Positions 2,646 through 32,000 of a DNA stretch of 32,000 nucleotides are shown here, piece by piece. How positions within the stretch are numbered: position 1 is the stretch's first letter; the number at the start of each line of letters is the position of its first letter. The notes beneath the pieces are model-generated. The model saw nothing but the letters and a program-made list of their open reading frames with translations, did no database searches and was not told where the DNA came from. The position numbers and the translations under genes are program-made. The DNA lies in assembly GCF_000022265.1 (NCBI RefSeq), contig NC_011979.1, positions 1,590,001 to 1,622,000 on the forward strand, in the 5' to 3' direction. The DNA is from Geotalea daltonii FRC-32 (GTDB lineage Bacteria > Desulfobacterota > Desulfuromonadia > Geobacterales > Geobacteraceae).

Positions 2646-3257
2646 ATGGGGGCAAACAGGCTGAATATCACCTGGCATGACAGGGTACTGACCAAGGGTG
2701 ACTATCTTAAACGCAATGGGCACCAGCCTTTGGTGTTGTGGTTTACCGGACTTTCAGGGTCAGGCAAATCAACGCTTGCCCATGCCGTTGAAGAAGAGCT
2801 GTTCAGGAAAGGCTGCTATACGTATATACTGGATGGCGACAATATACGCCACGGACTCAACAGCGACCTTGGATTTTCTGAGGCTGACCGGAGGGAGAAC
2901 ATCAGGCGTATCGGGGAAGTTGCCAAGCTTTTTGTTGATGCCGGCATTATAGTTCTGGCAGCATTTATTTCTCCTTACCGGGAAGACCGGGAGAGGGTTC
3001 GGGCACTTTTCGAACCTGCTGAATTTATCGAGGTATTTGTCAATTGCGACCTTGCTGTATGTGAAAGCCGCGATCCGAAAGGGCTTTATCGCAAGGCACG
3101 TTCAGGAGAGTTGAAGCAGTTCACCGGGATCGACAGCCCATATGAAGTGCCTTTTAGCCCCGAGCTGGTTGTCAATACTGCATGCAGTACGGTGAAAAGC
3201 GGTGTCCAGTCGGTGCTTGCATTCGTTAGGGACCGGGGACTGATAAACGGTGATTAG
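2646..3257 (+). CDS. cysC: Adenylylsulfate (APS) kinase
   Basis: AGGAG 6-7 nt upstream of the ATG. Canonical motifs [71 protein letters not shown]. The stop codon TAG (3255-3257) lies inside heptamer array A. Confidence 0.95.
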
Positions 3258-3353
3258 TGATTGGTGATTGGTGAACTCCGAACTTCGAACTTCGAACTTC
3301 GAACCTCGAACCTCGAACCTCGAACTTCGAACGTAAAACGTAGAACCTCGAAT
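3249..3353 (+). repeat. Heptanucleotide tandem array A (15 units in a single 7-nt phase)
   Basis: Read directly: GGTGATT AGTGATT GGTGATT GGTGAAC TCCGAAC TTCGAACx3 CTCGAACx3 TTCGAAC GTAAAAC GTAGAAC CTCGAAT. It starts in the last two codons of cysC and ends 19 nt before the cysD ATG. Confidence 0.95.
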
Positions 3354-4174: not shown

Positions 4175-4202
4175 GGTGATTGGTGATTGGTGATCGGTGG
4201 AA
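4175..4202 (+). repeat. Heptanucleotide array B (GGTGATT GGTGATT GGTGATC GGTGGAA)
   Basis: Starts 4 nt after the cysD stop with the junction AGGCGGTGATTGGTGATT and ends 2 nt before the ATG of the four-helix-bundle gene. Confidence 0.9.
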
Positions 4203-4204
4203 GT

Positions 4205-4585
4205 ATGTCTGGGGATCGGCCTAAAGCTAGAAGTCATAAAGACCTTCAGGTGTGGCAGCGAGCAATGTCTTTGGTGGTGTCCCTTTATGAATTGCTCAGG
4301 TCTTTTCCTGCCGATGAACGCTTCGGCTTGGTTGACCAGATCAAGCGTTCGGCTATCTCCATCCCTTCGAATATTGCTGAAGGGGCTGCACGACAGACCT
4401 CAAGAGAATACATTCAATTTCTGTATATCGCTGCCGAGTCAGCGGCAGAGCTTGACACGCAGCTTATACTTGCCCAGAGGCTTGGTTTTTCCACAGAGAT
4501 CGAAACTCAACTGGAAGAATTGCAGATTGTCCGCAAGCAGCTGAACGTAATGATCACAACACTGCGAGCAAACCATGAAAAGTGA
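4205..4585 (+). CDS. Four-helix-bundle protein (23S rRNA intervening-sequence protein family; Avd-like)
   Basis: [85 protein letters not shown] is the hallmark sequence of this family. ATG 4205 is preferred because the upstream extension (4187) only reads through the repeat. Confidence 0.9.
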
Positions 4586-6434
4586 AAAATCACCAGGCAC
4601 CATTCACCAATCACCAACGTCCAATCACGAATCACGACGAATTACGAATCACCAATCACGAATCACCAATCACCAATTTTTACAAGTGGTTTTCGTCGGC
4701 CATGTGGACCATGGCAAATCTACCCTGCTCGGCCGCATTTACGCCGACACCGATTCCCTTCCCGTCGGCCAATTGGAAAAGGTACGGGCAATTTGCGAGC
4801 AGCAGGGAAAGACATTCGAATATGCCTTTCTTTTCGATGCCTTTCTTGAAGAGCAAGAGCAGGGAATCACCATTGACACTGCCCGCACATTTTTCAACTG
4901 GGGCAACAGGCACTACATAATCATCGATGCCCCAGGCCACAAAGAATTCCTCAAGAACATGATATCCGGTGCAGCAAGGGCGGAGGCCGCAGTTCTTATC
5001 ATCGATGCAGCCGAAGGGGTTGCGGAGCAGTCGAAACGTCACGGTTACATGCTGAGTTTGCTGGGGATCAGGCAGATAGCCGTAGTCGTAAACAAGATGG
5101 ATCTCGTAAATCATGATCAAAAAGTTTTTGAAGCAATAGTTACCGAATACTCAGCCTTCCTTAAAGAGCTCGGTGTCACACCGCGTCAATTCGTTCCTGC
5201 CAGCGCCAGAAACGGAGATAACGTGGTCACGGGCAGTGATGCCATGCCCTGGTATGACGGCCCTACCGTTTTGGAATCTCTCGGCCGTTTCGAAAAACTG
5301 CCCAGTGGAGAAGAATTGCCGTTGCGTTTTCCGGTGCAGGACGTCTATAAATTCGATGCCCGCCGGATCATTGCCGGCCGGGTCGCTGCAGGTATGTTGA
5401 AGGTCGGCGACAGTCTGGTCTTTTCCCCTTCCAACAAGACGGCGGTGATCAAAACCATCGAGGCTTTCAATGTTGCCCATCTGCCTCTTTCTGCCGGAGT
5501 CGGCAAATCTACCGGCTTCACTCTGGACGAACAGATTTTTGTCGAACGTGGCGAGGTAGCATCGCTGAAGGAATCCTTGCCGGAGGTAACCGACCTCTTC
5601 CGCGCCAATCTCTTCTGGATGGGCAAAAATCCCATGGTCGGCAATCGTCCCTATCTGCTTCGCCTGGCAACGAAGGAAGTGGAAATGGAGCTGGCCGAAA
5701 TCCATCGCATCATCGATGCCGGCAGCCTTGACCCGGTAATGGCCAGGGAGCAGATAGAAAAGAATGACGTCGCCGAAGTCACCATAAGAACTAAAAAGCC
5801 TCTGGCTCTGGATTGTTTTTGCGACTGCGACATCACCGGGCGTTTCGTCGTTGTGGATGGCTATGATGTTTGCGGTGGGGGCATCGTCACCCAGGTACTG
5901 GACAACGACCAGGAGACCTTTCGCCGGGAGGCCAGGCAGCGCGATATTGCCTGGCGCCGCGGAGAAGTGCAACTTGGCGAGCGGGTGCAACGGAACGGGC
6001 ACAACCCGGGCATCATCCTCTTTACGGGAGAAAGCGGCACCGGCAAGGCCCGCCTTGCACGTCATCTGGAGCGCCGGCTTTTCGATGGCGGGCGTCAGGT
6101 GTATCTCCTTGATGGGAAGAACCTGCTTCTCGGGCTTGGCTCCGACGTCACCGAACAAGACAAGGAGGAGATGGTCCGGCGGTTCGGCGAAGTTGCCCAG
6201 ATTCTGTTGCGAGCCGGGCAGATTGTGGTATCGACCACCAATACCTTTGCCCAGGCAGATCATCAGATCATCAGCACCCTTGTTTATCCCCACCAGGTAA
6301 TTTCCGTGCACATGTCCTTTGCCAGGGGGGCTGTACCGGAAAAAACCGATCTCCGCTTTCTCGAATCGGACGACCTGAAAAAGGCCGCCAAACAGATTGT
6401 GGAGAAGATGGAAGAGTTGGGGATCCTGCTGTAA
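4575..6434 (+). CDS. cysN: Sulfate adenylyltransferase subunit 1 (GTPase) fused to a degenerate APS-kinase-like C-terminal domain
   Basis: [15 protein letters not shown] (G1), DAPGH, NKMD motifs and EF-Tu-like domains II/III. The C-terminal ~150 aa resemble CysC but with altered motifs. Start is uncertain: ATG 4575 translates array C as a 35-aa extension, and the only alternative is GTG 4686, just 4 codons before GHVDHGKS. Confidence 0.9.
4588..4674 (-). repeat. Heptanucleotide array C, reverse orientation (AATCACC-type, 12 units plus a 3-nt ACG insertion)
   Basis: AATCACC AGGCACC ATTCACC AATCACC AACGTCC AATCACG AATCACG [ACG] AATTACG AATCACC AATCACG AATCACC AATCACC. This is the reverse complement of the GGTGATT family and lies between the four-helix-bundle stop (4585) and the conserved CysN G-domain. 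Confidence 0.95.
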
Positions 6435-6438
6435 AGGC

Positions 6439-6589
6439 GGTGATTGGTGATACTTCGGTGATTGGTGATTGGTGAAGGGTGAAGGGTGAAGGGTGAAGGG
6501 TGAAGGGTGAAGGGTGAAGGGTGAAGGGTGAAGGGCACGACCTCGAACATGGAACATAGAACGTAGAACATAGAACATAGAACATAGAA
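6439..6589 (+). repeat. Heptanucleotide array D (composite)
   Basis: GGTGATT GGTGATA [CTTC] GGTGATT GGTGATT (GGTGAAG)x9 GGCACGA CCTCGAA CATGGAA CATAGAA CGTAGAA (CATAGAA)x3. The 19 units 6457-6589 share one phase. It begins 4 nt after the cysN TAA with AGGCGGTGATTGGTGAT and ends 19 nt before the wzm ATG. Confidence 0.95.
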
Positions 6590-6608
6590 CGGATTTTGCG
6601 GGGTAAAG

Positions 6609-7423: not shown

Positions 7424-7497
7424 GGTGATTGGTGATTAGACGGTGATTGGTGATTGGTGATTGGTGATTGGTGGATGGTGGATGGTGGATGGTGGAG
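7424..7497 (+). repeat. Heptanucleotide array E
   Basis: GGTGATTx2 [AGAC] GGTGATTx4 GGTGGATx3 GGTGGAG. The first 36 nt, including the wzm TAG, form an 18-nt tandem duplication TAGACGGTGATTGGTGAT x2 (7419-7454). Confidence 0.95.
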
Positions 7498-9414: not shown

Positions 9415-9464
9415 TCACTATAGAGATTGATTGTTTAATAGACTGAAATGGGGACTGAAATGGG

Positions 9465-9495: not shown

Positions 9496-9524
9496 ATAAT
9501 CAGATTTAAATTTATTTTGGCGGA

Positions 9525-10544
9525 ATGATCATGAAGCTGGTGCAAATGGTTCAGAAGGTAAAAAATATTTGTCTTAACAATGTAGAAAAAACAAACACTA
9601 TGGCGCAAAGACATTATAAATTTGCATATATAGAACCTGTCAGAGCATGTCCGGTAAAGTGTATTCCTTGTCCTGTTGGCCGAAACGTACTTTTTAAGCA
9701 TCCTGTGGTGGTCTTGGATCTGGAGATTGCTCGCAGGTGTTTTGCAAAGCTCAGGGGACAATTCGGTATAGATACATTAATAATGGGGAATTGGGGGGAG
9801 CCATTACTTCATCCGCAATTCCCTGAACTCGTGCAGCTGGCTAGGAGTTCAGGGTTTAGACAGATAGAAGTATCAACTTCACTTTCAGTAAAATGCGATA
9901 TGGCTAGTATTATAGGTGCAGGGCTAGACTGTATCCAGATTTCTATGTCAGGAATAACAAAAGACGTTTACAATCAAAGTCACAGATTTGGAGACTTTGA
10001 CCTTATATTTAAGAATCTTGAATCTTTAGTCAGTCTTAATAAAGTAAAAACTACCCCGGCTGGCATTGTTATTCGCTGGCATCGTTATCACCATAATGAA
10101 GCTCAGTTTGAGGCAGTAAGCAACTTTTGTAAAGATCTTGGCTTAGGTCTATTGCCATACTTCGGCCATCTCGGTAGTATAGAGGCTATGCGGGACTGGT
10201 CCAATCATCAACTTGAAGAACCTCTTAAATCTTTTGTTTATAACTCTGTCTTTACTGAATTTATAGAAAAAGCATGTATTCTAAATAAAGGGGCCACAAA
10301 TTGTAAGCAGTCGGAGTTTGTGGTTTTAGATGCCGACGGTTCGTTGGTATTTTGTTGCTCTTGCTATAAAAACTACAAAACGAATGCTCCCTTTCTAGCG
10401 ATGAGTGCAAGCGAGATAGAATCTTTTAAATCCCCCAATTCAACTATTTGCAGTCTTTGTCTTGGTAGCGGCTGGTCTGGGTATATGAATAGACCAAAGA
10501 CACTGGAGGAGTATGATGGGTGCATTTCTTTGGGCGCAACATAG
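9525..10544 (+). CDS. Radical SAM enzyme with SPASM/twitch-like C-terminal Cys cluster
   Basis: CPVKCIPC (CxxxCxxC), GNWGEPLLHP (GGE-type SAM motif), C-terminal CKQSEFVVLDADGSLVFCCSC (C-x11-G-x4-C) and CSLC. Start is uncertain (9525, 9531 or ATG 9600, which lies 12 codons before the Cys motif). Confidence 0.85.
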   Translation: MIMKLVQMVQKVKNICLNNVEKTNTMAQRHYKFAYIEPVRACPVKCIPCPVGRNVLFKHPVVVLDLEIARRCFAKLRGQFGIDTLIMGNWGEPLLHPQFPELVQLARSSGFRQIEVSTSLSVKCDMASIIGAGLDCIQISMSGITKDVYNQSHRFGDFDLIFKNLESLVSLNKVKTTPAGIVIRWHRYHHNEAQFEAVSNFCKDLGLGLLPYFGHLGSIEAMRDWSNHQLEEPLKSFVYNSVFTEFIEKACILNKGATNCKQSEFVVLDADGSLVFCCSCYKNYKTNAPFLAMSASEIESFKSPNSTICSLCLGSGWSGYMNRPKTLEEYDGCISLGAT

Positions 10545-10705
10545 GGGTCTATGAGTATGTATGCGTTAGAGGCAAAAGAAGGACCTACCACTGCAGATCG
10601 TCGCACACGGCGTCCGTGCTCTAAATTAACAATTTCAATATCTATAAGGAACCACTCAAAATAATTAATAAGCCTAAGGCGGGAGCAGCCCAGGAAATTC
10701 TAATT

Positions 10706-12037
10706 ATGAGTCACGATAGGCAAATCGCAATTGCAGTAAAAAATCTAACCAAAGTCTACAAGCTTTACGATACCCCATTGGACCGAGTTAAAGAGTCGAT
10801 AAATCCATTTAGCCGGAAGTATCACAAAGATTTCTATGCGCTCAATGATGTAAGCTTTGACATTGAAAAGGGATCCACTATTGGTATTATCGGCAAAAAT
10901 GGATCAGGTAAATCAACTCTTCTCAAAACAATAACAGGAGTGCTGACACCATCAAGTGGTAGTGTTACTGTCAATGGAAAAATTTCTGCTCTGCTTGAGC
11001 TAGGCGCAGGGTTTAATACTGAGTTGACAGGTATTGATAACATTTACTTTAATGGGACCCTCCAAGGGTACACTAAAGATGAGATAGATTTAAAGTTAGA
11101 TGAAATTCTATCTTTTGCGGATATTGGAGAGTTTGTGTTTCAACCTGTCAAAAGCTATTCAAGCGGCATGTTTGTTCGGTTGGCTTTTGGAGTGGCAATC
11201 AATGTTGATCCTGATATATTAATCGTTGATGAAGCTCTGGCAGTAGGGGATATAAAATTTCAGCGCAAGTGTTTTTCCAAGATCGAAGAATTTCATAAGA
11301 AAGGTAAAACTATAATTTTTGTTTCGCACGGTTTAGATACAATCAACCTTCTCTGCGACACTGCATATCTGCTTGATGGAGGCAGATTGATTGAAGAAGG
11401 CCTGCCCAAGAATGTTACTAAAGTATATCAAAAAATGATGTTAGGCGAAGACACTATTAGTTCTACAACGGACGTATGTTTGGGAAAAGAGTTAGAATTC
11501 CTATACGACCTACCGTCTGAGCAGGATTGTGAGTTTTATACAAATGAATACGACACCCAGAAATTAAACGAATTAGTTAAAGATAAAATCCAAAAGTGGG
11601 ACGGCCATAAAAAGGCAGAAATCATAGATTGTGGTATTTGGGATGCGCTGGGTAATAAAGTCACTCTTCTGGAATGTGGTGCACATTACACTTTTTATTC
11701 GAAGATACTTATTCATGTAGATTTAGAAGTCATACATGTTGGTTTCCCTATCAAAAATGTTAAAGGCCTAATGCTTTTTGGTGTAAACAGCGAGATACAA
11801 AAAGTTGCAGTTACGCCAAAAACAAAGGGAAATGTTGTTGAGGGTCGTGTCGACGTTACGATGTGGCTGGCGCCAGGCAATTATTTTCTCTCGTTTAGAG
11901 CTGCTACAAGACAGGAAGTTTTCGACGAGTTGAATGATCAAGTACACTTTGTTGTAACAGGCGGCAACCATACCCTCAATGCTCTTTCCGTAGTGAATTT
12001 GGAGCCAAAGGTGACCCTCAGAACTTTGGCTTTCTAA
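10706..12037 (+). CDS. wzt: Polysaccharide export ABC transporter ATP-binding protein with C-terminal carbohydrate-binding (Wzt_C-like) domain
   Basis: Walker A GKNGSGKST, signature SYSSGM, Walker B ILIVDE, H-loop VSHG. An extra ~170-aa beta-rich C-terminal domain (AEIIDCGIWDALGNKV...GNYFLSFRAA...VHFVV) matches terminus-recognising Wzt proteins. Confidence 0.9.
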   Translation: MSHDRQIAIAVKNLTKVYKLYDTPLDRVKESINPFSRKYHKDFYALNDVSFDIEKGSTIGIIGKNGSGKSTLLKTITGVLTPSSGSVTVNGKISALLELGAGFNTELTGIDNIYFNGTLQGYTKDEIDLKLDEILSFADIGEFVFQPVKSYSSGMFVRLAFGVAINVDPDILIVDEALAVGDIKFQRKCFSKIEEFHKKGKTIIFVSHGLDTINLLCDTAYLLDGGRLIEEGLPKNVTKVYQKMMLGEDTISSTTDVCLGKELEFLYDLPSEQDCEFYTNEYDTQKLNELVKDKIQKWDGHKKAEIIDCGIWDALGNKVTLLECGAHYTFYSKILIHVDLEVIHVGFPIKNVKGLMLFGVNSEIQKVAVTPKTKGNVVEGRVDVTMWLAPGNYFLSFRAATRQEVFDELNDQVHFVVTGGNHTLNALSVVNLEPKVTLRTLAF

Positions 12038-12129
12038 GGATGACAGCTGAAGGCTCTGTTCAAATTTAATGTTGTTTTCGGGGTTTTTTAAAAATAATAA
12101 AACAACCCTCAGGAGTGTCCGCCTTACTT

Positions 12130-12936
12130 ATGGGATTAAAATTATCGTTATTCAGACCAGAATCAAAGCCAATTGAAAAATCCTTCGTATTTATAACAGG
12201 AACGCCTCGTTCAGGCACATCAATGCTAACAAAAGTTATTGATGCGCATCCAGATGCTGCGATCTTGATGGAAAATCTCTTTGGAAATAGACGTAGGCAC
12301 TGGGAGCGTGCAAGCTTCTGGAATGAACCTCAATTATTACAGGCAGAGATTGAAAAAGTATATTCTCCTTTCAAACAGCAACTGATTGGCAACAAGGTTT
12401 GTACTCCTGATGTTTGGTCAGCTGAGGACATAGTAACCTTTTGCCAGTTTTTTTCAGATTCCAAATTCATCTTCATTGTCAGAGATCCAATAGAAGTAGC
12501 ACTTTCAAGATTCAGGCGGGAAAATTATGATAAAGAATTTAATTCTTTCGCAAGACAGCATATGCAATTAGACTTCAGAAGCAGATCTTTTACCTATACA
12601 TCTTCATGGGCAGGCAGCATCCAAAATTATTGGTTTCTCAAAGAGCTTTTTCCAACTAAAACACTACTTATTTATTACGATGACTTTTGCAACACGTTTG
12701 AAGATCATTTACATACATTAGTTGATTTCCTTGATCTCCCTTTCTCAGAAAAAATGCTTAAATGGCATGAACTACCACATCATGACTCAGAAGGGGTTTT
12801 ACAGGTTAACTTAAAATACGATGATGAGCCGGTTTTTGTTAACAAAAGCAAGAGTTCGTCCCTTACTGACGAACTAATGTTGGCAATGGCCACTATTGAA
12901 CCATTGTATAATCGGTGGAAGAAGAGATCTCTCTGA
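12130..12936 (+). CDS. PAPS-dependent sulfotransferase family protein
   Basis: 5-prime-PSB loop FITGTPRSGTSML and 3-prime-PB segment FIVRDPIEVALSRF. The ORF track starts at GTG 12115, which overlaps the AGGAG, so ATG 12130 is preferred. Confidence 0.8.
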   Translation: MGLKLSLFRPESKPIEKSFVFITGTPRSGTSMLTKVIDAHPDAAILMENLFGNRRRHWERASFWNEPQLLQAEIEKVYSPFKQQLIGNKVCTPDVWSAEDIVTFCQFFSDSKFIFIVRDPIEVALSRFRRENYDKEFNSFARQHMQLDFRSRSFTYTSSWAGSIQNYWFLKELFPTKTLLIYYDDFCNTFEDHLHTLVDFLDLPFSEKMLKWHELPHHDSEGVLQVNLKYDDEPVFVNKSKSSSLTDELMLAMATIEPLYNRWKKRSL

Positions 12937-12983
12937 AATAGTATGTTTTCTGTAGGGCTAAGTTCTAAAAAAAGGATGGAAAT

Positions 12984-13355
12984 ATGAGTACAAAGCAACT
13001 CTCTAGTGTTAAGATCATGTCCTTTGGATTTAAGTATGGCAGCCCAAACGCAAATTACTATTTTGATGTGGGCTTTATAAAAAATCCAGCAAGGGATCCG
13101 AAATGGAATTTTTTTTCTACGCCTGATGAAGAAATGCGCAACTTCGTGCTGAGCCAGAAACCTGTTGTTGAATTTTTAAAGTATATAATCCCCCTCATAA
13201 AAATACTGGCACCTCTTGATCAAGCCCAAGTTTTCGCTTTTGGTTGTAATTCTGGTCGCCATCGCAGTTATATTCTAGTTGAGGAGATTGCTCGCCAGCT
13301 AAAAGAGTGCGGGGTGCCCGCTAAAATCGTACACCGTGAGGATGATTTACAGTGA
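12984..13355 (+). CDS. Stand-alone RapZ (YhbJ/YvcJ) C-terminal-domain-like protein
   Basis: SFGFKYGSPNANYYFDVGFIKNPARDPK and AFGCNSGRHRSYILVEEIARQL match, from memory, the RapZ C-terminal segments [29 protein letters not shown] and AIGCTGGKHRSVYIAEQLA. Only 12 residues precede the first motif, so the P-loop N-domain is absent. Confidence 0.75.
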   Translation: MSTKQLSSVKIMSFGFKYGSPNANYYFDVGFIKNPARDPKWNFFSTPDEEMRNFVLSQKPVVEFLKYIIPLIKILAPLDQAQVFAFGCNSGRHRSYILVEEIARQLKECGVPAKIVHREDDLQ

Positions 13356-14287
13356 GCTCTAATAATGAACGTATTTGGTGCCCTAGCGGCGAACTTAGAC
13401 CCTTAAGTTTTGCACAGGCCCCGAAAAAAGACCTTGCATTTATCGTCGTAAACCGAAATCGTCGCGATTTGACTGACTATCTCTGTCACCAGATTCTCAA
13501 TTTTACGAACACTACGGATCTAACTTATGATCTGTTTGTAGTTGATATCGGTTCGGAACCTGCCCAACGTAGCCCTTTTACCACCATTGAATACGAAGAT
13601 AGCGACTTTCGAGGCAAGTGTTATGCACACAATGTAGGGGTGCGTCAAGCGGCATTAACCGCTGATTACCGTTATTATTGGGCTATGATGAATGACCTAC
13701 GTTTTGATGGGCAGCCAGATGCTATGATGCGGATGATAGAATTAATGGACAGTAATCCAGAAATTGGAATTTTAAGCCCTACAAATATTGGGGAAGGTAA
13801 GGAATATCCTGGTGCTGATCCACAACCAGGACACGTATTTAGAAAGGTGCCGGTGTGCGATTATCTTGCACTTATGTTGCGTGGCCAAGTCTTGCATGAG
13901 GTAGGATTTCTTAACCCCGAATTTCGCTATTGCTGGGGAGCGATACATGAACTGTCATATAAGGTATACCGTACAGGTAAATGGTCTATTGCGTATTGTG
14001 ATACTGTTCATTATGAACATTTAGGTGGCACTACCTATGGTAAGACAAAAAATGTTGTTAGCCGCGACGAATACACATTGAATGCAAAAAGGTTCGCAGC
14101 TTCTTACTTTGTGAAGCAATACGGGCGGGACTGGGATGAAAAATTTACAGATGCATTGCCTACAGATGTCACCTTAAAAGAAACGTACTCACGTCATCGA
14201 ACCTACTGGGAGGAATCTTTAGTTTCTGAAAAAAATTGCCGTAATTCCTTTTTTCATAATATCTGGCGAAAAATCAAAAATGGCTGA
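13352..14287 (+). CDS. GT2-like glycosyltransferase (divergent)
   Basis: GTG start overlaps the upstream TGA (GTGA). LAFIVVNRNRRDLTDYL...LFVVDIGSEP...AHNVGVRQAA...MMNDLRF follows the GT-A fold order, but the DxD is atypical. Confidence 0.6.
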   Translation: MSSNNERIWCPSGELRPLSFAQAPKKDLAFIVVNRNRRDLTDYLCHQILNFTNTTDLTYDLFVVDIGSEPAQRSPFTTIEYEDSDFRGKCYAHNVGVRQAALTADYRYYWAMMNDLRFDGQPDAMMRMIELMDSNPEIGILSPTNIGEGKEYPGADPQPGHVFRKVPVCDYLALMLRGQVLHEVGFLNPEFRYCWGAIHELSYKVYRTGKWSIAYCDTVHYEHLGGTTYGKTKNVVSRDEYTLNAKRFAASYFVKQYGRDWDEKFTDALPTDVTLKETYSRHRTYWEESLVSEKNCRNSFFHNIWRKIKNG

Positions 14288-15061
14288 ATGGGCATTATGA
14301 AGAATTGTATTATTTTGGGATCAGGAAGAAGTGGCACAAGTATGGTTGCCGGTACTTTGGCGAAATCAGGCTACTTTATGGGGGATAACCTTTATCCAGC
14401 CCGAGAAAGCAATCCTAAGGGGTTTTTCGAAGACCCATTTATAAATGGTATAAACGAGGAAATTTTAGAAAGGATGTGCTTTGGCGCCGTAGAGAGCATC
14501 AAAAGGAAATTAAGCGGTATACGATTGACAGATGGGCAGAGATGGCTAGAGAAGATACCACTGGATGCTAGACTTCCTTCGTCTATGGCACTAACAGAGA
14601 AAATACTAACGGCTGTAAATAAGGCACCTTTCTGCTATAAAGATCCGCGGTTTAGCTATACCCTACCGATTTGGCGTCCTTACTTACAAAACACGGTCTT
14701 CATTTGCGTATTTCGAGAACCTACTGTCACAGCACAAAGCATTATCAAAGAGTGCAGCGCGATGGAATATTTAAAGTCAGTTAAAATGAGTTTTAAGTAC
14801 GCCTTGGAAATTTGGTTCCATATTTACAACCACATACTTACGACTCATATTCATGAGGGAGAGTGGCTGTTTCTGCATTATGATCAGGTGCTGAGTTTTG
14901 ATGGAGCTTCGAGAATAGAGGCGATTGCAGAATCGGCCACAGACAAATCGTTTCCAGAAGAACAATTTAAACGTTCTTCTTCAACTTTAGAATGCCCAAG
15001 TAAACATCGAAAAATGTATGCCCAGTTGTGTGAATTAGCAAGATATCAGCCATCTTATTAG
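14288..15061 (+). CDS. PAPS-dependent sulfotransferase family protein
   Basis: ILGSGRSGTSMVAG (5-prime-PSB loop) and VFREPTVTAQSIIKE (3-prime-PB). The ATG directly abuts the upstream TGA. Confidence 0.8.
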   Translation: MGIMKNCIILGSGRSGTSMVAGTLAKSGYFMGDNLYPARESNPKGFFEDPFINGINEEILERMCFGAVESIKRKLSGIRLTDGQRWLEKIPLDARLPSSMALTEKILTAVNKAPFCYKDPRFSYTLPIWRPYLQNTVFICVFREPTVTAQSIIKECSAMEYLKSVKMSFKYALEIWFHIYNHILTTHIHEGEWLFLHYDQVLSFDGASRIEAIAESATDKSFPEEQFKRSSSTLECPSKHRKMYAQLCELARYQPSY

Positions 15062-15085
15062 GTACATGGTCATGGCAGGAGGATT

Positions 15086-16123
15086 ATGGATGGTGTAAGC
15101 CTGGTAATTTGTTGCCACAATAGCTCTAAGAAACTTGAAGAGACCTTGAAGCATGTGAGCCGGCAAAAATTCTCCAGTGAGGTTCCCTGGGAATTGATTA
15201 TTGTTGATAATGCATCCACTGATTTAACTTCTGAGATGGCAACTGCTATAACTCAAGGTGCGACGTATAACTGTAGGATAGTCACTGAGGGAAAAGTAGG
15301 TCTTAAGAATGCAAGACTGAAAGGAATAGTTGAGTCTAAATACGATTTAATAAGCTTTATTGATGATGATAATTGGATTTGTGAATCATGGATTGAAAAT
15401 GTACACAACATAATGTCTAATCGTCCTGAGATTGGTGCCTGTGGTGGAATAGGATTACCCAAATTTGAAACTTCTCCACCTGATTGGTTCGAGCTTCAGC
15501 AAGGTAGTTATGCTGTTGGCCTACAAGCTGAATCTACCGGTTATATACCTGATTCGAGAGGGTACCTATGGGGTGCCGGATTAACTATCAGGAGGTCAGC
15601 TATGGATGAAATTATACAGAACGGATTTTGTTTTTCCCTAACAGGGCGTCATGGCGCAAGCATTTCCTCGGGAGAGGATACGGAGTTGTGTTTAGCATTG
15701 AGGTGCCTTGGTTGGCGTCTTTGGTATGATGAAAGCCTTTCCTATTATCATTATCTTCCTTCCAGCCGACTCAGTTGGTCTTACCTGAAAAGGTTGCAAT
15801 TCAGTTTTGGTGCATCTAGTGTTGTGTTGAATGCCTATAATGAATGCCTGCTGTATAACCCTGAAACCATCCAAAATCATAAAAAGCTGTGGATTGCAGA
15901 CTCTATGGCATTGACAAAGTCTTTCTTTGCTAGAGACGGACACCTTTTTTCTTTTATCTGCGCCAAAGAAGGTTCGTCAGATGCATTATTTGGATACTAT
16001 AGATTGGGCAGGCTTTTACAAATTATAAGCTTACGTCATAAATATGATGAACTCAAAAATAGCATTTTTGCTTTCTGGCAGAGAGCAAGCTCAATAAGAA
16101 CTTATAGAACCGGGTCAGGTTAA
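15086..16123 (+). CDS. GT2 glycosyltransferase
   Basis: AGGAGG RBS. VSLVICCHNSSKKLEETLKHVSRQ...ELIIVDNASTD...ISFIDDDN. Confidence 0.85.
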   Translation: MDGVSLVICCHNSSKKLEETLKHVSRQKFSSEVPWELIIVDNASTDLTSEMATAITQGATYNCRIVTEGKVGLKNARLKGIVESKYDLISFIDDDNWICESWIENVHNIMSNRPEIGACGGIGLPKFETSPPDWFELQQGSYAVGLQAESTGYIPDSRGYLWGAGLTIRRSAMDEIIQNGFCFSLTGRHGASISSGEDTELCLALRCLGWRLWYDESLSYYHYLPSSRLSWSYLKRLQFSFGASSVVLNAYNECLLYNPETIQNHKKLWIADSMALTKSFFARDGHLFSFICAKEGSSDALFGYYRLGRLLQIISLRHKYDELKNSIFAFWQRASSIRTYRTGSG

Positions 16124-16234
16124 TGTAGGAATACGATGACATTGTACTCGTAGTCTCAGTTTAGCTTTTAGTGCATCCAACCATATAACTGCAGCTGCAA
16201 TCGGCGTTAAGAAATAATATCGAAAGGATCGGGA

Positions 16235-17224
16235 ATGGCTATCAATTTGATAGTCCAATACTATAGGTGTTTGGACGATGTAAGACAGCAGGAAATCGAT
16301 TCCTGTCTACAAAATAATCTATTAAATGAATATCTAGATGCAATCCATCTACTGACAGAGATCCTTTATGATTTTCAAAACTTCAAGAACAGTGAAAAAA
16401 TTGTCCAGTCTGTAGTCGGTAAAAGACTGTCATACAAAAAAGCTTTTGAATATGCAACGTCACTCGGTGGGGACCATATCTGGATACTAGCTAATGCCGA
16501 CATCTATTTCGATGACAATTTGAAATATCTGAATGGATTTCCCTGCAATGTGGTTTATTCCTTGACTCGACACGAAGTGCAGCCTGATGGCTCGGTGAAA
16601 TTCATGGATGAGCAGTATGCTCATGCAAGTCAGGATGCTTGGATATTCAGCAGCCAGTTGGACTTTACGGGTATGTACACAGAGTTTAATCTAGGTGTAC
16701 CAGGTTGCGATAACAGGATCGCATACGAGTTTTTACGCACAGGCCACACCGTAGTAAATCCTTCAAGGATCGTTAAATGTTTCCACCTGGATTTAACAAA
16801 AGAGATAGACATCGAAAAAAGGACTGCCGCCTACATCACTCTCCACACGAATGAGAATATTCTCGATGGTAAGGTCGCCCCACCCCCTTATCAGTTTTTC
16901 ATATATCCAACTGATCATCTTGGGGTGGAACAGATTGATGTATATAAGGATATGCAAAAGAAATTAATCGACCTCACCCATGCATACCAGGATTTAGACC
17001 GATATACTGCTCACAATGCTGAATTGGAAAGTAGAGTTGTCAATCTCAATCGAGAATTGGAAGAATGTCGCGAAATGATTTTAGAGCGAAACAATCAGAT
17101 AGCCGAGAGGGATAACCAAATAGCGCGAAAGGATGCCCAAATAGCGGAAATATTAAACTCTGTAACATGGAAAATGATGACACCTTTACGAAAATGCCTC
17201 GATTTCATTAAAAGACATCACTAG
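16235..17224 (+). CDS. Protein with an unassigned transferase-like N-domain and a C-terminal coiled coil ending in a W-K/R-x-x-T/A-P-L/I-R motif
   Basis: N-domain QDAWIFSS...LGVPGCDNRIAYEF...VVNPS...FHLD. C-terminus ELESRVVNLNRELEECREMILERNNQIAERDNQIARKDAQIAEILNSVTWKMMTPLRK (heptad-like). Confidence 0.6.
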   Translation: MAINLIVQYYRCLDDVRQQEIDSCLQNNLLNEYLDAIHLLTEILYDFQNFKNSEKIVQSVVGKRLSYKKAFEYATSLGGDHIWILANADIYFDDNLKYLNGFPCNVVYSLTRHEVQPDGSVKFMDEQYAHASQDAWIFSSQLDFTGMYTEFNLGVPGCDNRIAYEFLRTGHTVVNPSRIVKCFHLDLTKEIDIEKRTAAYITLHTNENILDGKVAPPPYQFFIYPTDHLGVEQIDVYKDMQKKLIDLTHAYQDLDRYTAHNAELESRVVNLNRELEECREMILERNNQIAERDNQIARKDAQIAEILNSVTWKMMTPLRKCLDFIKRHH

Positions 17225-17251
17225 TCTATACAAAGAACGGACTTTCTAGCC

Positions 17252-18160
17252 ATGCATACGAATTCCGAGTGTTTTTATCCCAAAGTATCAATAATAATTC
17301 CGGTGTACAATGGGTCAAATTACCTAAATCAATCTATTGACAGTGCATTGGCACAAACTTATCAAAACATTGAGGTGATTGTCATAAATGATGGTTCAAC
17401 AGACGATCTGGCTACAGAGAATATAGCTAAGTCGTATGGTGACCGCATCCGGTATTTTTGCAAAAACAATGGTGGAGTCGGCTCGGCGCTGAATTTCGGC
17501 TTAGATAAAATGACAGGTAAATACTTTTCCTGGCTTAGCCATGATGATATTTACCAGCCGAACAAAATCGAGAGGCAGATAGAACTTCTACGTAAACAAA
17601 CTAATCCTGAAGGTGTCATCGTTTTTTCTGACTGGGAGAATATTGATGAGAATTCCTCGTCGATTGGGTGCAGAATCATTGACCAAGCAGAGATTGCGAG
17701 CAGCATTTATGTTGTCATGAACTGCACGGTAAATGGATGCACTTTGCTCATTCCTAAGAAATGTTTTGATGAGACTGCCTCATTTGATGAGAACCTCCCA
17801 ACAACACAGGATTACGATCTGTGGTTTAAAATGGCCCGAAAGTACCAATTTTTACATCTTCCCGAGTCATTAGTCCGTTACAGAATACATTCTCAACAAG
17901 ATTCTTACAAGCATCCAGAACATGTGAAAGAACAGAATATTTTGCATACCAATTTCATATCTAGATTGACTGTGGACGAGATTTTGAATTTAGAAAATTC
18001 ATTGCCAGTTTTTTATATAAAAAGAGCTATTTTTTATAAGTATAAATTCCCGGTGGCCGAGGAACATGCCTTTAATTTATTTAAATGTACAGTCTCTCAA
18101 ATAAATCTCTTTCAAATCTTGCAATGTTTACGGTTGTATATTAAGTATAAATCTCTTTAG
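17252..18160 (+). CDS. GT2 glycosyltransferase (paralog of 19077..20039)
   Basis: VSIIIPVYNGSNYLNQSIDSALAQTY.NIEVIVINDGSTDD...SWLSHDD...TTQDYDLWF. Confidence 0.85.
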   Translation: MHTNSECFYPKVSIIIPVYNGSNYLNQSIDSALAQTYQNIEVIVINDGSTDDLATENIAKSYGDRIRYFCKNNGGVGSALNFGLDKMTGKYFSWLSHDDIYQPNKIERQIELLRKQTNPEGVIVFSDWENIDENSSSIGCRIIDQAEIASSIYVVMNCTVNGCTLLIPKKCFDETASFDENLPTTQDYDLWFKMARKYQFLHLPESLVRYRIHSQQDSYKHPEHVKEQNILHTNFISRLTVDEILNLENSLPVFYIKRAIFYKYKFPVAEEHAFNLFKCTVSQINLFQILQCLRLYIKYKSL

Positions 18161-18196
18161 TCTGTTGTTGCATATTAATAATTAGGTGAAGTTCCA

Positions 18197-19042
18197 ATGG
18201 TTAAAGTCAGCGTAATAATACCAACATACAACCGTTCTGAGCTTTTAAAGTGTGCGATAACAAGTGTACTTGACCAGGCCTATGACAACTATGAATTACT
18301 AATTATTGACGACGGGTCAACTGATGACACCAAAAGTATTGTCAATGGCTTCGGTTCACCTAAAATCAGGTATATTTACCAGAGTAACAGTGGTCGATCT
18401 TCGGCACGGAATTACGGAATTAAGCTTTCCAAAGGTGAGTATGTTTCATTTCTAGATTCCGATGATATTTTTTTACCTAACAAGTTAAGTTTGCAGGTTC
18501 AGGCACTTGATGAAAATCCAAACTGCGGGTTGGTATATGCATATGCCAAAAATGTCGATGAAAATGGTAGATTTTTGGATTTTCACTTTGATGGTAATCT
18601 ATCAGGTAAAATTTACCCCGAAATGTTGTATATAAAGAATAACTATATAACTACTCCGACTGTCATGGTTCGCGCTAAAGTATTAGCTCAGATTGGAGGC
18701 TTCAATGAATCCATGCATATGTGCGAAGATCTTGATCTTTGGCGTAGAATTGCTCGAAAGTATGAGGTTAAACAAATTTGTCAATCTTTGGCACATGTTA
18801 GAATAAGGACAACTGAGAAAATGAACATTTTGGAGTATATGAGAGGACGGAAACAATATTACGTCAAAGCAATGATAGATGACCATAATCTCAAAGCAAT
18901 AGCACCTGCCTTATTCGTTGAAATGTATCGAGTCTACTTAAATTGTGCAAAATACCAGAAACAGTATTTCGTGTTATTATACATACTATTCCAATATTTG
19001 TTGTTTAGGGCTTTCAACATGGGCATAAAAAATCGTTGTTGA
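18197..19042 (+). CDS. GT2 glycosyltransferase
   Basis: VSVIIPTYNRSELLKCAITSVLDQAYDNYELLIIDDGSTDDT...VSFLDSDD...CEDLDLWRR. Confidence 0.85.
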   Translation: MVKVSVIIPTYNRSELLKCAITSVLDQAYDNYELLIIDDGSTDDTKSIVNGFGSPKIRYIYQSNSGRSSARNYGIKLSKGEYVSFLDSDDIFLPNKLSLQVQALDENPNCGLVYAYAKNVDENGRFLDFHFDGNLSGKIYPEMLYIKNNYITTPTVMVRAKVLAQIGGFNESMHMCEDLDLWRRIARKYEVKQICQSLAHVRIRTTEKMNILEYMRGRKQYYVKAMIDDHNLKAIAPALFVEMYRVYLNCAKYQKQYFVLLYILFQYLLFRAFNMGIKNRC

Positions 19043-19076
19043 CACTATAACTCTGATCAAAATTAGGCACTATTAA

Positions 19077-20039
19077 ATGACTCCTTTAGTTTCGATCATA
19101 ATACCTGTCTACAATGGCTCAAACTATCTAAAACAAGCAATTGATAGTGCCCTGAACCAAACCTACAAATATATTGAAATATTGGTGATAAATGACGGCT
19201 CTAACGATGGTGGCCTGACTGAGGAAATAGCCAGATCTTATGGTGATAAGATCAGGTATCATTGTAAGCCAAACGGTGGGGTAGCCACAGCACTCAACAC
19301 TGGTATCAACCTGGCTGCCGGTGACTACATCTCCTGGTTGAGCCATGATGATCTTTATCTGCCCCACAAAATAGAGAGGCAAATCTCCACCATTGCATCA
19401 ATTGGCGGTTCAGATGTTATTTCTTACTCTAACTATGAAACAATAGATGCAAAGAACAATGTCCTCCGTACAGTCAGATTGGAGACATCTGAAATTTACG
19501 ACTGCAAACTCGCTTTCCTCTTGCAGTTGTTTATTTCTTCTATCCATGGTTGTTCATTGCTGATACCAAGAAAATGCTTTACTGAGGTTGGTTATTTCAA
19601 AGAATCTCTGAGAACGACACAAGATTATGACCTGTGGTTCAGATTGTTGCAAAAAGGATTTGCTTTTACCCATTTGCCAGAAATTCTTATTCAATCGCGC
19701 TTTCATAATGAGCAGGGGACCCATTCCTTGTATGCCGTCCATCTCAAAGAGGCGGAGCAGTTGTATCTGCGAGCGGTTAATACCTTCTATGACGATTTCG
19801 AAAAATTGCCAATAAAGAAGATTGTGGACCTGGTCATTGACCTGAGGGAAAGAAAGCTGAAGCAAACGGCCAATCATGTTTTAAAGTCGATCAAACAGCG
19901 CAACATGAGACTTTACATGCAAATGTACGGCGAATATTACAAACCTTTGATCGCAAGCTGGCTGATGTTCCATGTATCGAGACTGACTCAATTGGCCAAA
20001 GTTATACTCAGCATCTTGAAAAGAAAGGGGAGGGCGTGA
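19077..20039 (+). CDS. GT2 glycosyltransferase (paralog of 17252..18160)
   Basis: VSIIIPVYNGSNYLKQAIDSALNQTYKYIEILVINDGSNDG...SWLSHDD...TTQDYDLWF. Roughly half of the positions over the first ~230 aa are identical to 17252..18160 by eye. Confidence 0.85.
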   Translation: MTPLVSIIIPVYNGSNYLKQAIDSALNQTYKYIEILVINDGSNDGGLTEEIARSYGDKIRYHCKPNGGVATALNTGINLAAGDYISWLSHDDLYLPHKIERQISTIASIGGSDVISYSNYETIDAKNNVLRTVRLETSEIYDCKLAFLLQLFISSIHGCSLLIPRKCFTEVGYFKESLRTTQDYDLWFRLLQKGFAFTHLPEILIQSRFHNEQGTHSLYAVHLKEAEQLYLRAVNTFYDDFEKLPIKKIVDLVIDLRERKLKQTANHVLKSIKQRNMRLYMQMYGEYYKPLIASWLMFHVSRLTQLAKVILSILKRKGRA

Positions 20040-30096: not shown

Positions 30097-32000
30097 ATGA
30101 GTGCATCTTGGCTGAACGGTAAAATACCCGCTTTCTTTTTTGGAAGGATACGACACGCAGCTGTTGTTCACGGCATGATACTGATGCTCGTGGGTTTTTT
30201 TGCCTACGCCAATACCTTCGACGCCCAGTTCAATTTCGACGACGTACCGGCGATTCTCGGCAATCCCACTGTCAGGAGCGCGGAATCAGTGACAGATCCC
30301 CTGGCGATACGAGGGAACAGGGGGGTGGGAAATTTCAGCTTTGCCCTGAATTACAAGATTGCCGCCGAGCTCACGGGAGACGGCTTTTCCGTCCGCGGCT
30401 ATCATTATTTCAACCTTGCCGTCCATCTTGCCAATGCTTTGCTGGTCTATCTGCTGGTGATCCTGACTATCCGGAGGTCCACATCAGGGGAAAGCAGTGA
30501 GTGGCGGGGCAGGGGGATCGCTTTTTTGGCCGCTCTCCTTTTCGTCAGCCATCCGTTGCAGACCCAGGCTGTAACCTATATTGTCCAGCGCTTCACCTCT
30601 CTGGCCACAACCTTTTACCTATTATCACTGGTCTTTTACATATTCGCCCGCAGCCAGCGGGGTGACTCGACAAACGGCAACCGTTTGAAGGCTGCCGTGT
30701 TTTGGGCACTCTCAATCGTGCTGGCGGCACTGGCAATGGGAACCAAGGAAATTGCCATAACCCTTCCATTTACAATCATCCTCTACGAATTCCTTTTTTT
30801 CAGGGGAAGCATCGTCAAACGTTTACTGGCAGCCGGCGCCTTTCTCCTCACCCTGATCATCATTCCCCTCAGCATTATCGGTGCATCCGGCGGACAGCTT
30901 TTGAGCAGGATAGAGGCTGCAACAAAAGTTCAGACGGACATGTCGCGGCTGGATTACCTGTACACCCAGTTCAAGGTGGTAGTGACCTATTTGAGGCTGC
31001 TTTTTTTCCCGGCCGGGCAGAACCTGGAGTACGACTACCCCGTTTCCCATTCCTTTTTCGAGGCGGGGGTGATTCTCTCTTTCCTGCTGCTACTGGCGAT
31101 ATTTGGGCTTGGCGTCTATTTCCTTTATCGTTCGAAGTTCGAGGTTCGAGGTTCGAAGTTCGAAGTTGGCCAAGCGCATTCACCAATCACCAATCACCAA
31201 TCACCAATAACCAATCACCGCCTCATCGCCTTCGGCATTTTCTGGTTTTTCATTACCCTGTCGGTTGAGTCCAGTTTCATTCCCATTGTGGATGTCATCT
31301 TCGAGCATCGCGTCTATCTACCGTCGGTGGGCTTCTTCATCGCCGTCGCCACCCTGGTCGTCCTGGGTGCCGAAAAGCTTTCCCTGGGAAGGCCCAGGGT
31401 TGCCGACGGCCTGCTGGTATCCATATTGCTGCTGTCCTGTGTGCTGGCGCTGCTTACCTTCAATCGCAACCGGGTCTGGGCCGATGAGATAACCCTCTGG
31501 GAGGATGTAGCCGCCAAATCGCCGAACCTTTCCAGGCCATGGAACAACCTGGGCTACGCCTATCTCAAGCATCGTCTGCCGAAAAAGGCCATCCCGGCCC
31601 TCATTACCTCCATAACCATTTCTCCCGGTTCTCCCGATGCCTGGAACAACGTCGGAATGGCACTCACGCAGCTTGGCAGCTATACCGGGCGCTTCAGTCC
31701 CACTTATGAACTGTTCGATATGAGTGCCGGCATCACCTCGACCTATCAGAGCGAGTGGTTTGCCCTGGCTTACAACAATCTCGGCCTGGCCTACGATTCC
31801 ATGGGACAGGTCAATGAATCCATCGAGAACTTCCAGAAAGCGATCTCCATGAACCCGCGCCTGGCTCAGGCCTATTACAATCTGGGACTGGCCTTTCTTG
31901 CCATAAAAGACAAAGGGCAGGCTGCAGATCAGTATCGAATGTTGAGATCCCTCGATCCGGAACTGGCGGCAAAGCTGCGGGAAGCGGTGATTGGTGATTG
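30097..32000 (+). CDS. GT-C-fold (PMT/TMTC-like) polytopic membrane protein with C-terminal TPR repeats; 3-prime end beyond the window
   Basis: Not in the ORF track because no stop occurs. I read frame 1 open from ATG 30097 to nt 32000. First-loop FNFDDVPAILGNP (DD motif), many hydrophobic helices, EHRVYLPSVGFF, then TPR-like WNNLGYAY..., AYNNLGLAYDSMGQ..., AYYNLGLAFLAIKD.... Contains array F in frame. Confidence 0.85.
   Translation, partial: MSASWLNGKIPAFFFGRIRHAAVVHGMILMLVGFFAYANTFDAQFNFDDVPAILGNPTVRSAESVTDPLAIRGNRGVGNFSFALNYKIAAELTGDGFSVRGYHYFNLAVHLANALLVYLLVILTIRRSTSGESSEWRGRGIAFLAALLFVSHPLQTQAVTYIVQRFTSLATTFYLLSLVFYIFARSQRGDSTNGNRLKAAVFWALSIVLAALAMGTKEIAITLPFTIILYEFLFFRGSIVKRLLAAGAFLLTLIIIPLSIIGASGGQLLSRIEAATKVQTDMSRLDYLYTQFKVVVTYLRLLFFPAGQNLEYDYPVSHSFFEAGVILSFLLLLAIFGLGVYFLYRSKFEVRGSKFEVGQAHSPITNHQSPITNHRLIAFGIFWFFITLSVESSFIPIVDVIFEHRVYLPSVGFFIAVATLVVLGAEKLSLGRPRVADGLLVSILLLSCVLALLTFNRNRVWADEITLWEDVAAKSPNLSRPWNNLGYAYLKHRLPKKAIPALITSITISPGSPDAWNNVGMALTQLGSYTGRFSPTYELFDMSAGITSTYQSEWFALAYNNLGLAYDSMGQVNESIENFQKAISMNPRLAQAYYNLGLAFLAIKDKGQAADQYRMLRSLDPELAAKLREAVIGD
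31130..31220 (-). repeat. Heptanucleotide array F, reverse orientation, inside the GT-C/TPR coding sequence (13 units, one phase)
   Basis: GTTCGAA GTTCGAG GTTCGAG GTTCGAA GTTCGAA GTTGGCC AAGCGCA TTCACCA ATCACCAx3 ATAACCA ATCACCG. This is the reverse complement of an array-A-type (GGTGATT)n-(TTCGAAC)n composite. It is translated as [31 protein letters not shown]. Confidence 0.95.
31986..32000 (+). repeat. Heptanucleotide array G (start only; GCGGTGATTGGTGATTG at the window edge)
   Basis: Same GCGGTGATTGGTGATT junction as the other forward arrays, here at the C-terminal end of the GT-C/TPR ORF. Confidence 0.8.

Follow-up and report, generated by a model that had tools for sequence, protein, structure and literature searches.

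A composite heptanucleotide array in a GT-C-like membrane protein gene of Geotalea daltonii: a candidate low-rate slippage switch

We analyzed a 32,000-nt stretch of the Geotalea daltonii FRC-32 genome (contig NC_011979.1, positions 1,590,001 to 1,622,000; hereafter the window), and in it a composite array of two different heptanucleotides that is translated in frame within the gene of a putative glycosyltransferase. The gene (30097..32000) encodes an eleven-helix GT-C-like membrane domain followed by a C-terminal periplasmic domain of tetratricopeptide repeats (TPRs), as judged from translation, Pfam and AlphaFold, and the array (31130-31220) falls between the eighth and ninth transmembrane helices (TM8 and TM9). 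Unless a locus is named, coordinates are window positions and the features lie on the plus strand. On balance, we lean toward reading the array as a tolerated, slippage-prone in-frame microsatellite that acts as a low-rate on/off site. That its mutability is more than an accident is suggested by the enrichment of such arrays in this one gene family, by the many perfect arrays among them, and by the replacement of whole arrays by other units between orthologs. That the rate is low and the gene usually needed is suggested by the rarity of alleles in which the frame is broken (OFF) and by the frozen array length in the G. daltonii lineage.

The mechanism we propose is that a composite heptanucleotide microsatellite occupies a dispensable, disordered cytoplasmic linker between TM8 and TM9. 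Within the gene, such an array would persist only where its units are read in the stop-free orientation and its total length leaves the frame open. Slippage during replication would add or remove units, so that a change of one or two units would truncate the enzyme before TM9, the conserved EHRxYLPS motif and the TPRs (OFF), and a change of three units, or a compensating change in the partner sub-array, would leave the gene ON with a different linker. The site would thus be a low-rate, potentially reversible slipped-strand switch. The anatomy, the frame, the recurrence in the family and the natural length variants of relatives are direct observations, and the cytoplasmic location of the loop, the slippage mechanism, its reversibility, its selective value and the substrate of the enzyme are points that we infer.

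Architecture and reading frame of the array

Repeats were detected with Tandem Repeats Finder (TRF). TRF and the translation agree with a first-pass annotation of the window, made from the letters alone, that an array at 31130-31220 lies inside the open frame of the gene starting at 30097; from the ATG at 30097 the frame is open through the array and up to the window end. Sub-array 1, (GTTCGAA)5.4, occupies 31130..31167 (period 7, 93% matches), with the units GTTCGAA GTTCGAG GTTCGAG GTTCGAA GTTCGAA GTT. Sub-array 2, (TCACCAA)5.7, occupies 31180..31220 (period 7, 93% matches; TRF span 31180-31219) and consists of four TCACCAA units followed by TAACCAA and TCACCG. A three-way comparison of the loop DNA defined a non-repeat 12-nt junction between them (..GGCCAAGCGCAT; 31168..31179), which is kept in G. 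toluenoxydans and in a metagenome relative (L147). The array thus reads CGTTCGAA GTTCGAG GTTCGAG GTTCGAA GTTCGAA GTTGGCC AAGCGCAT and then the units of sub-array 2, and its translation is flanked by GVILSFLLLLAIFGLGVYFLY and LIAFGIFWFFITLSV. Three-unit probes of either unit type, with at most two mismatches, match 14 and 9 times in the window, inside arrays only, against an expectation of 0 from 100 dinucleotide-preserving shuffles.

Sub-array 2 is the reverse complement of GGTGATT, a common unit of this genome. In fact, the reverse complement of the whole array, (GGTGATT)n-spacer-(YTCGAAC)n, has the same unit families in the same order as a composite between cysC and cysD, (GGTGATT)3.7-(YTCGAAC)n at 3249..3352, and the variants TTCGAAC and CTCGAAC are common to both. 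The first-pass annotation was therefore right to call the coding array the reverse complement of the intergenic (GGTGATT)n-(TTCGAAC)n composite; the two are the same element in opposite orientations. Read on the GGTGATT strand, the repeat gives TGA in each of the three frames, and the opposite strand stays open. The heptamer array is thus not peculiar to this gene; it is a coding copy, in the sole translatable orientation, of the heptameric repeat class with which the spacers between genes are filled in this genome. The additional claim that neither unit type has a stop in any frame is true of the consensus units, but the variant unit TAACCAA (31208-31214) gives TAA in one alternative frame.

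Two hallmarks of a contingency locus are present: two arrays of 7-nt units, a length that is not a multiple of three, lie inside an ORF (open reading frame), and in silico the gain or loss of a single unit abolishes the full-length product. Removing one unit from either sub-array gives a product of 368 aa, which ends there because of the TAA of the variant unit, and adding one unit to either gives a product of 392 aa. Both stops precede the conserved EHRVYLPS segment and all TPRs, just as had been predicted from the sequence at first reading. Full length is restored in silico by removing one unit from one sub-array and adding one to the other, or by removing three units.

The encoded protein and the position of the loop

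The gene product has 635 aa, with the last codons and the stop just past the window end, and the ORF is identical to G. daltonii FRC-32 ACM19826.1 (P0123), which ends ..AVIGDW. The final codons (VIGDW) and the stop are supplied by the start of a 3' flanking (GGTGATT)n array, detected by TRF at 31986..32000. Pfam recognizes only TPR families, at residues 481-622 in the C-terminal third. For the membrane domain (residues 1-460), sequence-level searches of Pfam, NCBIfam and the PDB gave no match, and profile membership in the curated GT-C families (PMT, PMT_2, DUF1736 and similar) was not found.

The fold tells more. AlphaFold predicts eleven transmembrane helices (pLDDT 77.7 for the full-length model; pTM 0.81 for residues 1-460), and the confident matches of a Foldseek search with the model of residues 1-460 are GT-C enzymes throughout, with probability 1.00: Pmt4 (9i5k, TM-score 0.48), ArnT (5f15/5ezm), Pmt1-Pmt2 (6p25), STT3 (6ftg_5) and ALG3 (9s6r). 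An important caveat is that the E-values of these matches are weak, 4.5e-3 to 5e-2, and that they come from the N-terminal-domain model alone, the full-length search being swamped by TPR matches. Pmt4, ArnT, STT3 and ALG3 match by fold, whereas at the sequence level Pfam and the PDB give no match. As in GT-C enzymes, a multi-helix membrane domain carries an acidic pair in its first outer loop, here the invariant D48 and D49. These two residues and the other invariant motifs, HPxQTQAV, KE and EHRxYLPS, sit in alternate loops on one face, and the five predicted cytoplasmic loops, which are short and rich in K/R, lie on the opposite face. These features, together with the conserved neighboring genes described below, fit a GT-C-fold periplasmic glycosyltransferase that would use a lipid-linked donor, a function that we infer. 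The TPRs would be on the outer side, as in the TMTC O-mannosyltransferases.

The whole loop comprises residues R345-R375 (31129..31221). It is preceded by the coding sequence of TM8 (31072..31128, approximately residues 326-344; hydropathy peak at 325-343, modelled helix 323-356) and followed by that of TM9 (31222..31278, LIAFGIFWFFITL...), which is identified by invariant columns. The invariant positions of the TM9 region are R375, L376, G380, W383, F384, E403, H404 and R405, and the periplasmic EHRxYLPS motif comes after TM9. The loop holds 5 K/R and is predicted to be disordered, with pLDDT below 50 at residues 352-369 and 351-369 in two models and confident helices on either side. In the predicted topology, with the N-terminus inside and the TPRs outside, it is the fourth cytoplasmic loop. 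The first reading was thus right that the repeat peptide forms a loop, flanked by two hydrophobic helices, in a putative glycan transferase. Because this loop is predicted to be cytoplasmic and disordered, the repeat peptide should not be a surface epitope.

Slippage alleles in relatives

Comparisons were made across 146 loci (~1.4 Mb), collected from a tblastn-ranked genome scan, among the matches listed, from a metagenome scan and by exact look-ups. Among the matches listed, the genome scan with the protein gave mostly paralogs at 35-47% identity and did not reach the closest genomes, and orthologs were fetched individually.

Natural alleles that differ by a single unit occur in a lineage whose protein is 59% identical to that of the window. 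Two loci (L088 and L128) carry (GTTCAAC)5 in the TM8/TM9 loop and an intact gene of 625 aa. Two others, from the ENA metagenome assemblies ERZ27267795 and ERZ27267809 (L086 and L087), carry (GTTCAAC)4, and the gene is split into ORFs of 366 and 236 aa. The 4-unit and 5-unit alleles are 99.6% identical over the gene (1.9 kb), and the 7-nt unit is the sole indel. The sequences of L086 and L087 are not identical at other positions, which shows that a single contig was not counted twice.

Changes in repeat number that keep the frame are also found in orthologs of other Geotalea-like lineages. Within one 90%-identity cluster, P0129 (660 aa) exceeds P0008 (639 aa) by a 21-aa repeat, corresponding to nine additional units. 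A related case is provided by the two-domain GT2 gene upstream of the ortholog, whose interdomain linker contains a composite (AGGAACG)n-(AACCTCG)n (L086 1865-1939; L087 1595-1666; L088 1761-1835). Between L086 and L087, which have only 6 mismatches in 1.57 kb, one sub-array differs by +1 unit and the other by a net -4, for a net -21 nt. Because the difference as a whole is in frame, paired arrays can compensate each other. In ten more 90%-identity clusters, we considered length differences as further array alleles and rejected them, as almost all reflect alternative start or stop calls; the exception is P0048 versus P0162, in which the array length changes in another cytoplasmic loop.

One homolog from Nitrospirota (L094, reverse strand) is out of frame in the TM8/TM9 loop, beside 8-nt and 7-nt arrays. 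It could not be counted as a defined slippage event, as the nearest relative is only 82% identical and the causal indel is not definable. The 8-nt unit of this gene (CGATTCAC, read as SPIHRFTD) is found in two cytoplasmic loops, including the one at about residues 130-150.

In another assembly of G. toluenoxydans the gene is fragmented (P0124, P0126 and P0128), which would be the natural argument for a decaying pseudogene or an assembly artefact. We rejected this copy as an OFF allele: its breaks lie at a G-run (..FFEGG..) and at NNLGYAY, and its array is intact. These breaks are probably sequencing errors, although the poly-G tract at ..FFEGG.. may be variable in that assembly. The window ORF itself is unbroken, three other sequences conserve it at 94-98%, the invariant residues of the catalytic face are kept, and at 91 nt the array is well within the length of a read or a k=141 k-mer. 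Decay or misassembly is thus extremely improbable as an account of the locus.

The loop across orthologs and the gene family

An alignment with orthologs had been proposed as a check on whether the loop of about 30 residues is an insertion, and the outcome is that it is an insertion or expansion. Distant orthologs, such as that of G. argillaceus, have a short, non-repetitive loop of ~10-18 aa (e.g. RSRPSASPAFLPAPHLRL), whereas those of Geotalea have longer loops built of DNA heptamers whose units differ by lineage. The loop of G. uraniireducens has (CGTTCTA)4.6 and (CGACCAC/CGACCGC)n, that of L083 has (CGTTCTA)4.6 and (ACAACTC)5, those of L084 and L085 pair (GAACGAG/GTTCGAG)n with the complement (CTCGTTC)n, L088 adds a degenerate ACAACYC pair to its (GTTCAAC)5, and in L106 (CGGTCGG)n stands beside the same spacer instead of (CGTTCTA)n. 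In Geotalea a GTTC-NNN core (GTTCGAA, GTTCTAC, GTTCAAC) is common to the first arrays and several of the second arrays are related, so the simplest history is that of a single ancient pair of arrays whose units are turned over in situ.

The G. uraniireducens-like alleles of L106 and L082 (6015-6141) agree in their spacer, CGTTGGATAGTTCACCATC, and in their 3' array, (CGACCNC)n, and their 5' arrays are wholly different, (CGTTCTA)4.6 versus (CGGTCGG)n. The (CGGTCGG)n of L106 is the reverse complement of the 3' array unit, a relation that template switching from one array to the other could produce.

Arrays with a period of 7, 14 or 21 nt are present in 37 of the 92 distinct TM8/TM9 loops, from Geobacterales and Nitrospirota, and arrays of other periods alone in two. 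When arrays in family genes are mapped by conserved anchors onto the predicted cytoplasmic loops, 59 fall in TM8/9, 27 in TM4/5 and 20 in TM2/3, and the rest of the membrane domain is almost free of them; in some genes there are five or six. Array length has a median of 4.3 units (interquartile range 3.3-4.8). Family genes contain 0.75 arrays per kb, versus 0.14/kb in the 797 kb around them, where arrays are mostly intergenic and only ~30 lie inside any other ORF; several of these ORFs resemble unrecognized paralogs. This strong enrichment in the cytoplasmic loops of one family, in two phyla, suggests selection that retains mutability. We also considered selection at the protein level for a 7-residue peptide repeat and regard it as unlikely, as the repeat has a period of 7 nt, not 21, at the DNA level and the units differ completely between orthologs.

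A simpler proposal is that the array is a pure passenger: a genome-wide heptamer class has colonized a tolerant loop and plays no role there, and slippage variants are deleterious and purged. The same composite is intergenic in the same genome, and the loop is predicted to be disordered and cytoplasmic. Homologs tolerate unrelated insertions at the site, as L092 and L107 have in-frame G/C-rich palindromes instead of or beside heptamers (e.g. CCCCCCTCACCCCCCTTTAGTAAAGGGGGGAGGGGGGG), from which it follows that the TM8/TM9 loop accepts other repeat or hairpin insertions. The scarcity of OFF alleles and the stable length in the G. daltonii lineage would be expected as well. However, tolerance alone leaves the several-fold excess in array density unexplained, as other membrane-protein genes in the clusters are almost without arrays. 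That turnover continues is implied by the many perfect arrays (100% matches), and the replacement of whole arrays by other units implies many gains and losses that the gene has survived. For these reasons we regard a mere passenger as rather unlikely, and a slippage site with some consequence for the gene as the better account.

Rate of switching in the G. daltonii lineage

For host-adapted pathogens, phase variation driven by repeats is textbook knowledge, but it is, as far as we are aware, hardly documented in free-living subsurface bacteria. The first-pass annotation saw in the array the classical architecture of a phase-variable locus. The strongest form of this idea is a true adaptive contingency locus, in which G. 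daltonii would switch the gene ON and OFF at high frequency (at least 1e-5 per generation) and so create surface-glycan heterogeneity, for example against phage. The architecture is indeed classical and the gene belongs to a glycan cluster, an ortholog has both ON and OFF alleles, and the family is enriched in arrays. Moreover, there are precedents for coding heptanucleotide repeats in glycan-modifying enzymes.

The first is neuO, the O-acetyltransferase gene of the CUS-3 prophage in E. coli K1, which has a coding AAGACTC repeat of 3-53 units and was OFF in 42 of 64 genomes (65.6%) (PMC13001214). As in the G. daltonii gene, a 7-nt unit is read in frame in the gene of a surface-glycan-modifying enzyme, the unit count must fit the frame, a 7-residue peptide repeat corresponds to three units, and the mechanism is strand slippage. 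The array of neuO, however, is a single one of perfect units at the 5' end, whereas the G. daltonii gene has two short, interrupted arrays (~5 and 6 units) in a linker between transmembrane helices at mid-gene. The second precedent is pglE, a glycosyltransferase gene of pilin glycosylation in Neisseria that phase-varies by a heptanucleotide repeat (PMC7157529). It too is a glycosyltransferase gene with a coding heptanucleotide repeat, among several independently variable glycan genes, but pglE encodes a soluble enzyme of a host-adapted pathogen and its switching was shown experimentally, whereas our case concerns a polytopic GT-C-like protein of an environmental metal reducer and is built on sequence. 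What is new relative to both is the presence of two adjacent arrays of different unit in a mid-gene transmembrane linker, several arrayed loops per gene, recurrence in two phyla of free-living bacteria, and kinship with an intergenic repeat class.

Several observations weigh against switching at such a rate, and some of them against any switch at this site. Over the region compared, the window differs from L147 at 32 of 1903 aligned columns (1.7%) and from G. toluenoxydans L079 at 119 of 1904 (6.2%), and the unit counts of both sub-arrays are identical in all three sequences. The array has one substitution in L147 and six in L079; the latter figure, 6/91 or 6.6%, is close to the gene-wide 6.2%. 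In contrast, the intergenic array right after the stop of the gene, which in L147 and L079 reads (GGTGATT/GGTGAAT)n-(YTCGAAC)n in the region orthologous to the array at 31986, has a very different unit number in these two. Because this downstream array varies freely over the same divergence, slippage evidently works in these genomes and it is the intragenic length that is held. Both G. daltonii sub-arrays are interrupted, with longest perfect runs of ~4 units for TCACCAA and fewer than 3 for either GTTCGAR variant, and interruptions in repeat arrays damp slippage. The array is also located mid-gene, not near the 5' end.

The family as a whole points the same way. The frame is broken between conserved anchors in 2 of 107 distinct family genes (~2%), compared with 65.6% for neuO, and the two assemblies that carry the 4-unit allele may represent one population sampled twice. 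Both breaks (L086/L087 and L094) lie in array-bearing TM8/TM9 loops. The sample of loci favors intact genes, so that ~2% is a lower bound, and the protein searches detect called ORFs only.

With arrays that are interrupted and kept at constant length, slow switching is what would be expected in G. daltonii, and a high-frequency contingency locus in this species is unlikely. Of the earlier claim, the architecture stands, as do ON/OFF and length alleles in the same loop of orthologs; a high-rate switch in G. daltonii is not supported. A low-rate site accommodates both sets of observations. If its mutability is used, Geobacter and Nitrospirota would diversify their surface glycans by the logic known from Neisseria and Haemophilus, which would bear on phage resistance, mineral attachment and biofilm behavior.

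Intergenic heptamer arrays and a role for the repeat as nucleic acid

Among long microsatellites, heptamers are the most over-represented in many bacterial genomes, and we know of no agreed role for them. The arrays in the loops studied here offer a testable handle on this question. In the window, every spacer from cysC to wzm holds a composite heptamer array, and at five consecutive gene ends a (GGTGATT)n array (at 3249, 4175, 6457, 7424 and 31986) starts 0-23 nt after the stop and is followed by a second array of a different heptamer. In addition to the composite between cysC and cysD, there is (GGTGATT)2.7-(GGTGAAG)9.3-(GAACATA)6.6 after cysN/C (6457..6590) and (GGTGATT)n-(TGGTGGA)4 after wzm (7424..7496). 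By TRF, the arrays of the window have 3.6-12 copies. Other Geotalea loci have the same habit, with the units GGTGAAT, GGTGAGG, GGTGAAA, GGTGAGA, GGAGTGA and GGGGATC; some arrays have GGGGATC or GGGATCG units. GGTGAT is complementary to AUCACC near the 3' end of 16S rRNA. As an idea only, the GGTGATT arrays might have a role in termination or re-initiation between cistrons.

Heptameric intergenic repeats are known from Xanthomonas (GGGAATC) and Nostoc (GGGGAYT), and as the cyanobacterial STRR, with a preference for ~4 copies (PMC4692102). The (GGTGATT)n arrays of the window resemble them in unit length, in the preference for ~4 copies and in occasional inverted pairs. However, the Xanthomonas and Nostoc class is under-represented in coding regions, whereas our array is coding, in frame and in the opposite orientation, and those repeats have been read in terms of G-quadruplexes, whereas three consecutive G occur neither in GGTGATT nor in TTCGAAC nor in the complements of the two. 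Closer in phylogeny, Geobacter metallireducens has multicopy elements of 4-5 heptanucleotides within and between genes (PMC2700814). They are built of other units (GGACCGG, MTYCTGA) and have been explained as regulatory RNA or as binding sites of regulators; that study reported no connection with a gene family, with loops or with frameshift alleles (PMC2700814).

These parallels raise the possibility that the repeat acts as nucleic acid, whether as a protein-binding site, as an RNA or DNA structure, or as a mobile or recombinogenic element linked to PF05635 genes, and that its translation is incidental. The narrow copy number, ~4-5 units as in the Xanthomonas and Nostoc heptamers, would agree with such a role. 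Sub-array 1 is quasi-palindromic through its TTCGAA core and can form a DNA hairpin (z-score -4.25 versus shuffles). The composite as a whole, however, is no more structured than shuffles (RNA structure, z = -0.5); the array matches no Rfam family and has no excess of promoter or terminator signals. In addition, the unit sequences at the same site are wholly different between orthologs, which argues against sequence-specific binding.

The association with PF05635 genes (23S rRNA intervening-sequence or four-helix-bundle proteins, bAvd-like) is the remaining point on its side. All four such genes in the 1.4 Mb lie between short tandem arrays (window 4175-4677; L088 6776-7472; L033 5536-5984; L145 339-742), and in three of the four the flanking arrays are inverted: GGTGATT/AATCACC in the window, GTTGAGx/xTCAACx in L088 and GTGAAxA/GATTCAC in L033. 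The window copy (4205-4585, within 4175..4677) is wedged between cysD and cysN, with (GGTGATT)3.6 at 4175-4199 and (AATCACC)12 at 4588-4677. The cassette of L088 is absent from the otherwise near-identical L086, and the unit looks like a small mobile or repeat-associated cassette. Weighing this association against the structural and sequence data, we consider a primary role as nucleic acid very unlikely.

A bolder extension is that a dedicated repeat-generating or mobile system, possibly the PF05635 cassettes, is common to Geobacterales and Nitrospirota and installs or maintains heptamer arrays, the result being a multi-site, compensable slipped-strand code by which environmental bacteria would turn surface glycans on and off in combination. 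Such arrays may be placed in the cytoplasmic loops of GT-C/TPR proteins, in the interdomain linkers of neighboring glycan genes and at gene ends. We regard this reading as decidedly doubtful. We also considered that the intragenic array and the inverted array after the stop might flank an invertible segment, and rejected it as a general scheme, as orthologs with other units show no complementary arrays there.

The arrays also affect annotation, where they produce false N- and C-terminal ORF extensions and split-gene calls. As called, the cysN/C ORF begins with an ATG at 4575, ahead of the stop-free (AATCACC)12, and crosses that array; the GTPase domain starts at ~4686. The N-terminal extension (4575-4686) is probably an annotation artefact caused by the array.

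Gene neighborhood

The gene is located in an O-antigen-type cluster of G. daltonii, with wzm/wzt and many GT2 genes. Upstream in the window are cysC, cysD, the PF05635 gene, cysN/C, wzm, a ParE toxin gene, wzt and the many GT2 genes. The synteny of neighboring genes is conserved across the orthologous loci of Geotalea, in all of which the gene is followed by those of a 237-aa GT2, a DUF2304 membrane protein and a MarR-type regulator. The NCBIfam models nearest to the 237-aa GT2 are those of polyprenyl-phosphate sugar synthases (PpgS, AglJ, dolichyl-P-hexose transferase and ArnC), all far below cut-offs. We presume that the gene, the small GT2 gene and that of the small membrane protein are comparable to the three-gene Gtr-type modules; the gtr operons of Salmonella phase-vary epigenetically, not by repeats.

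The G+C content is 0.35-0.44 at 8000-20000 versus 0.50-0.55 on either side. This low-G+C stretch spans wzt and radical-SAM and glycosyltransferase genes, with the ParE toxin gene (7733-8086) at its edge, and is probably the horizontally acquired, serotype-specific part of the glycan cluster.

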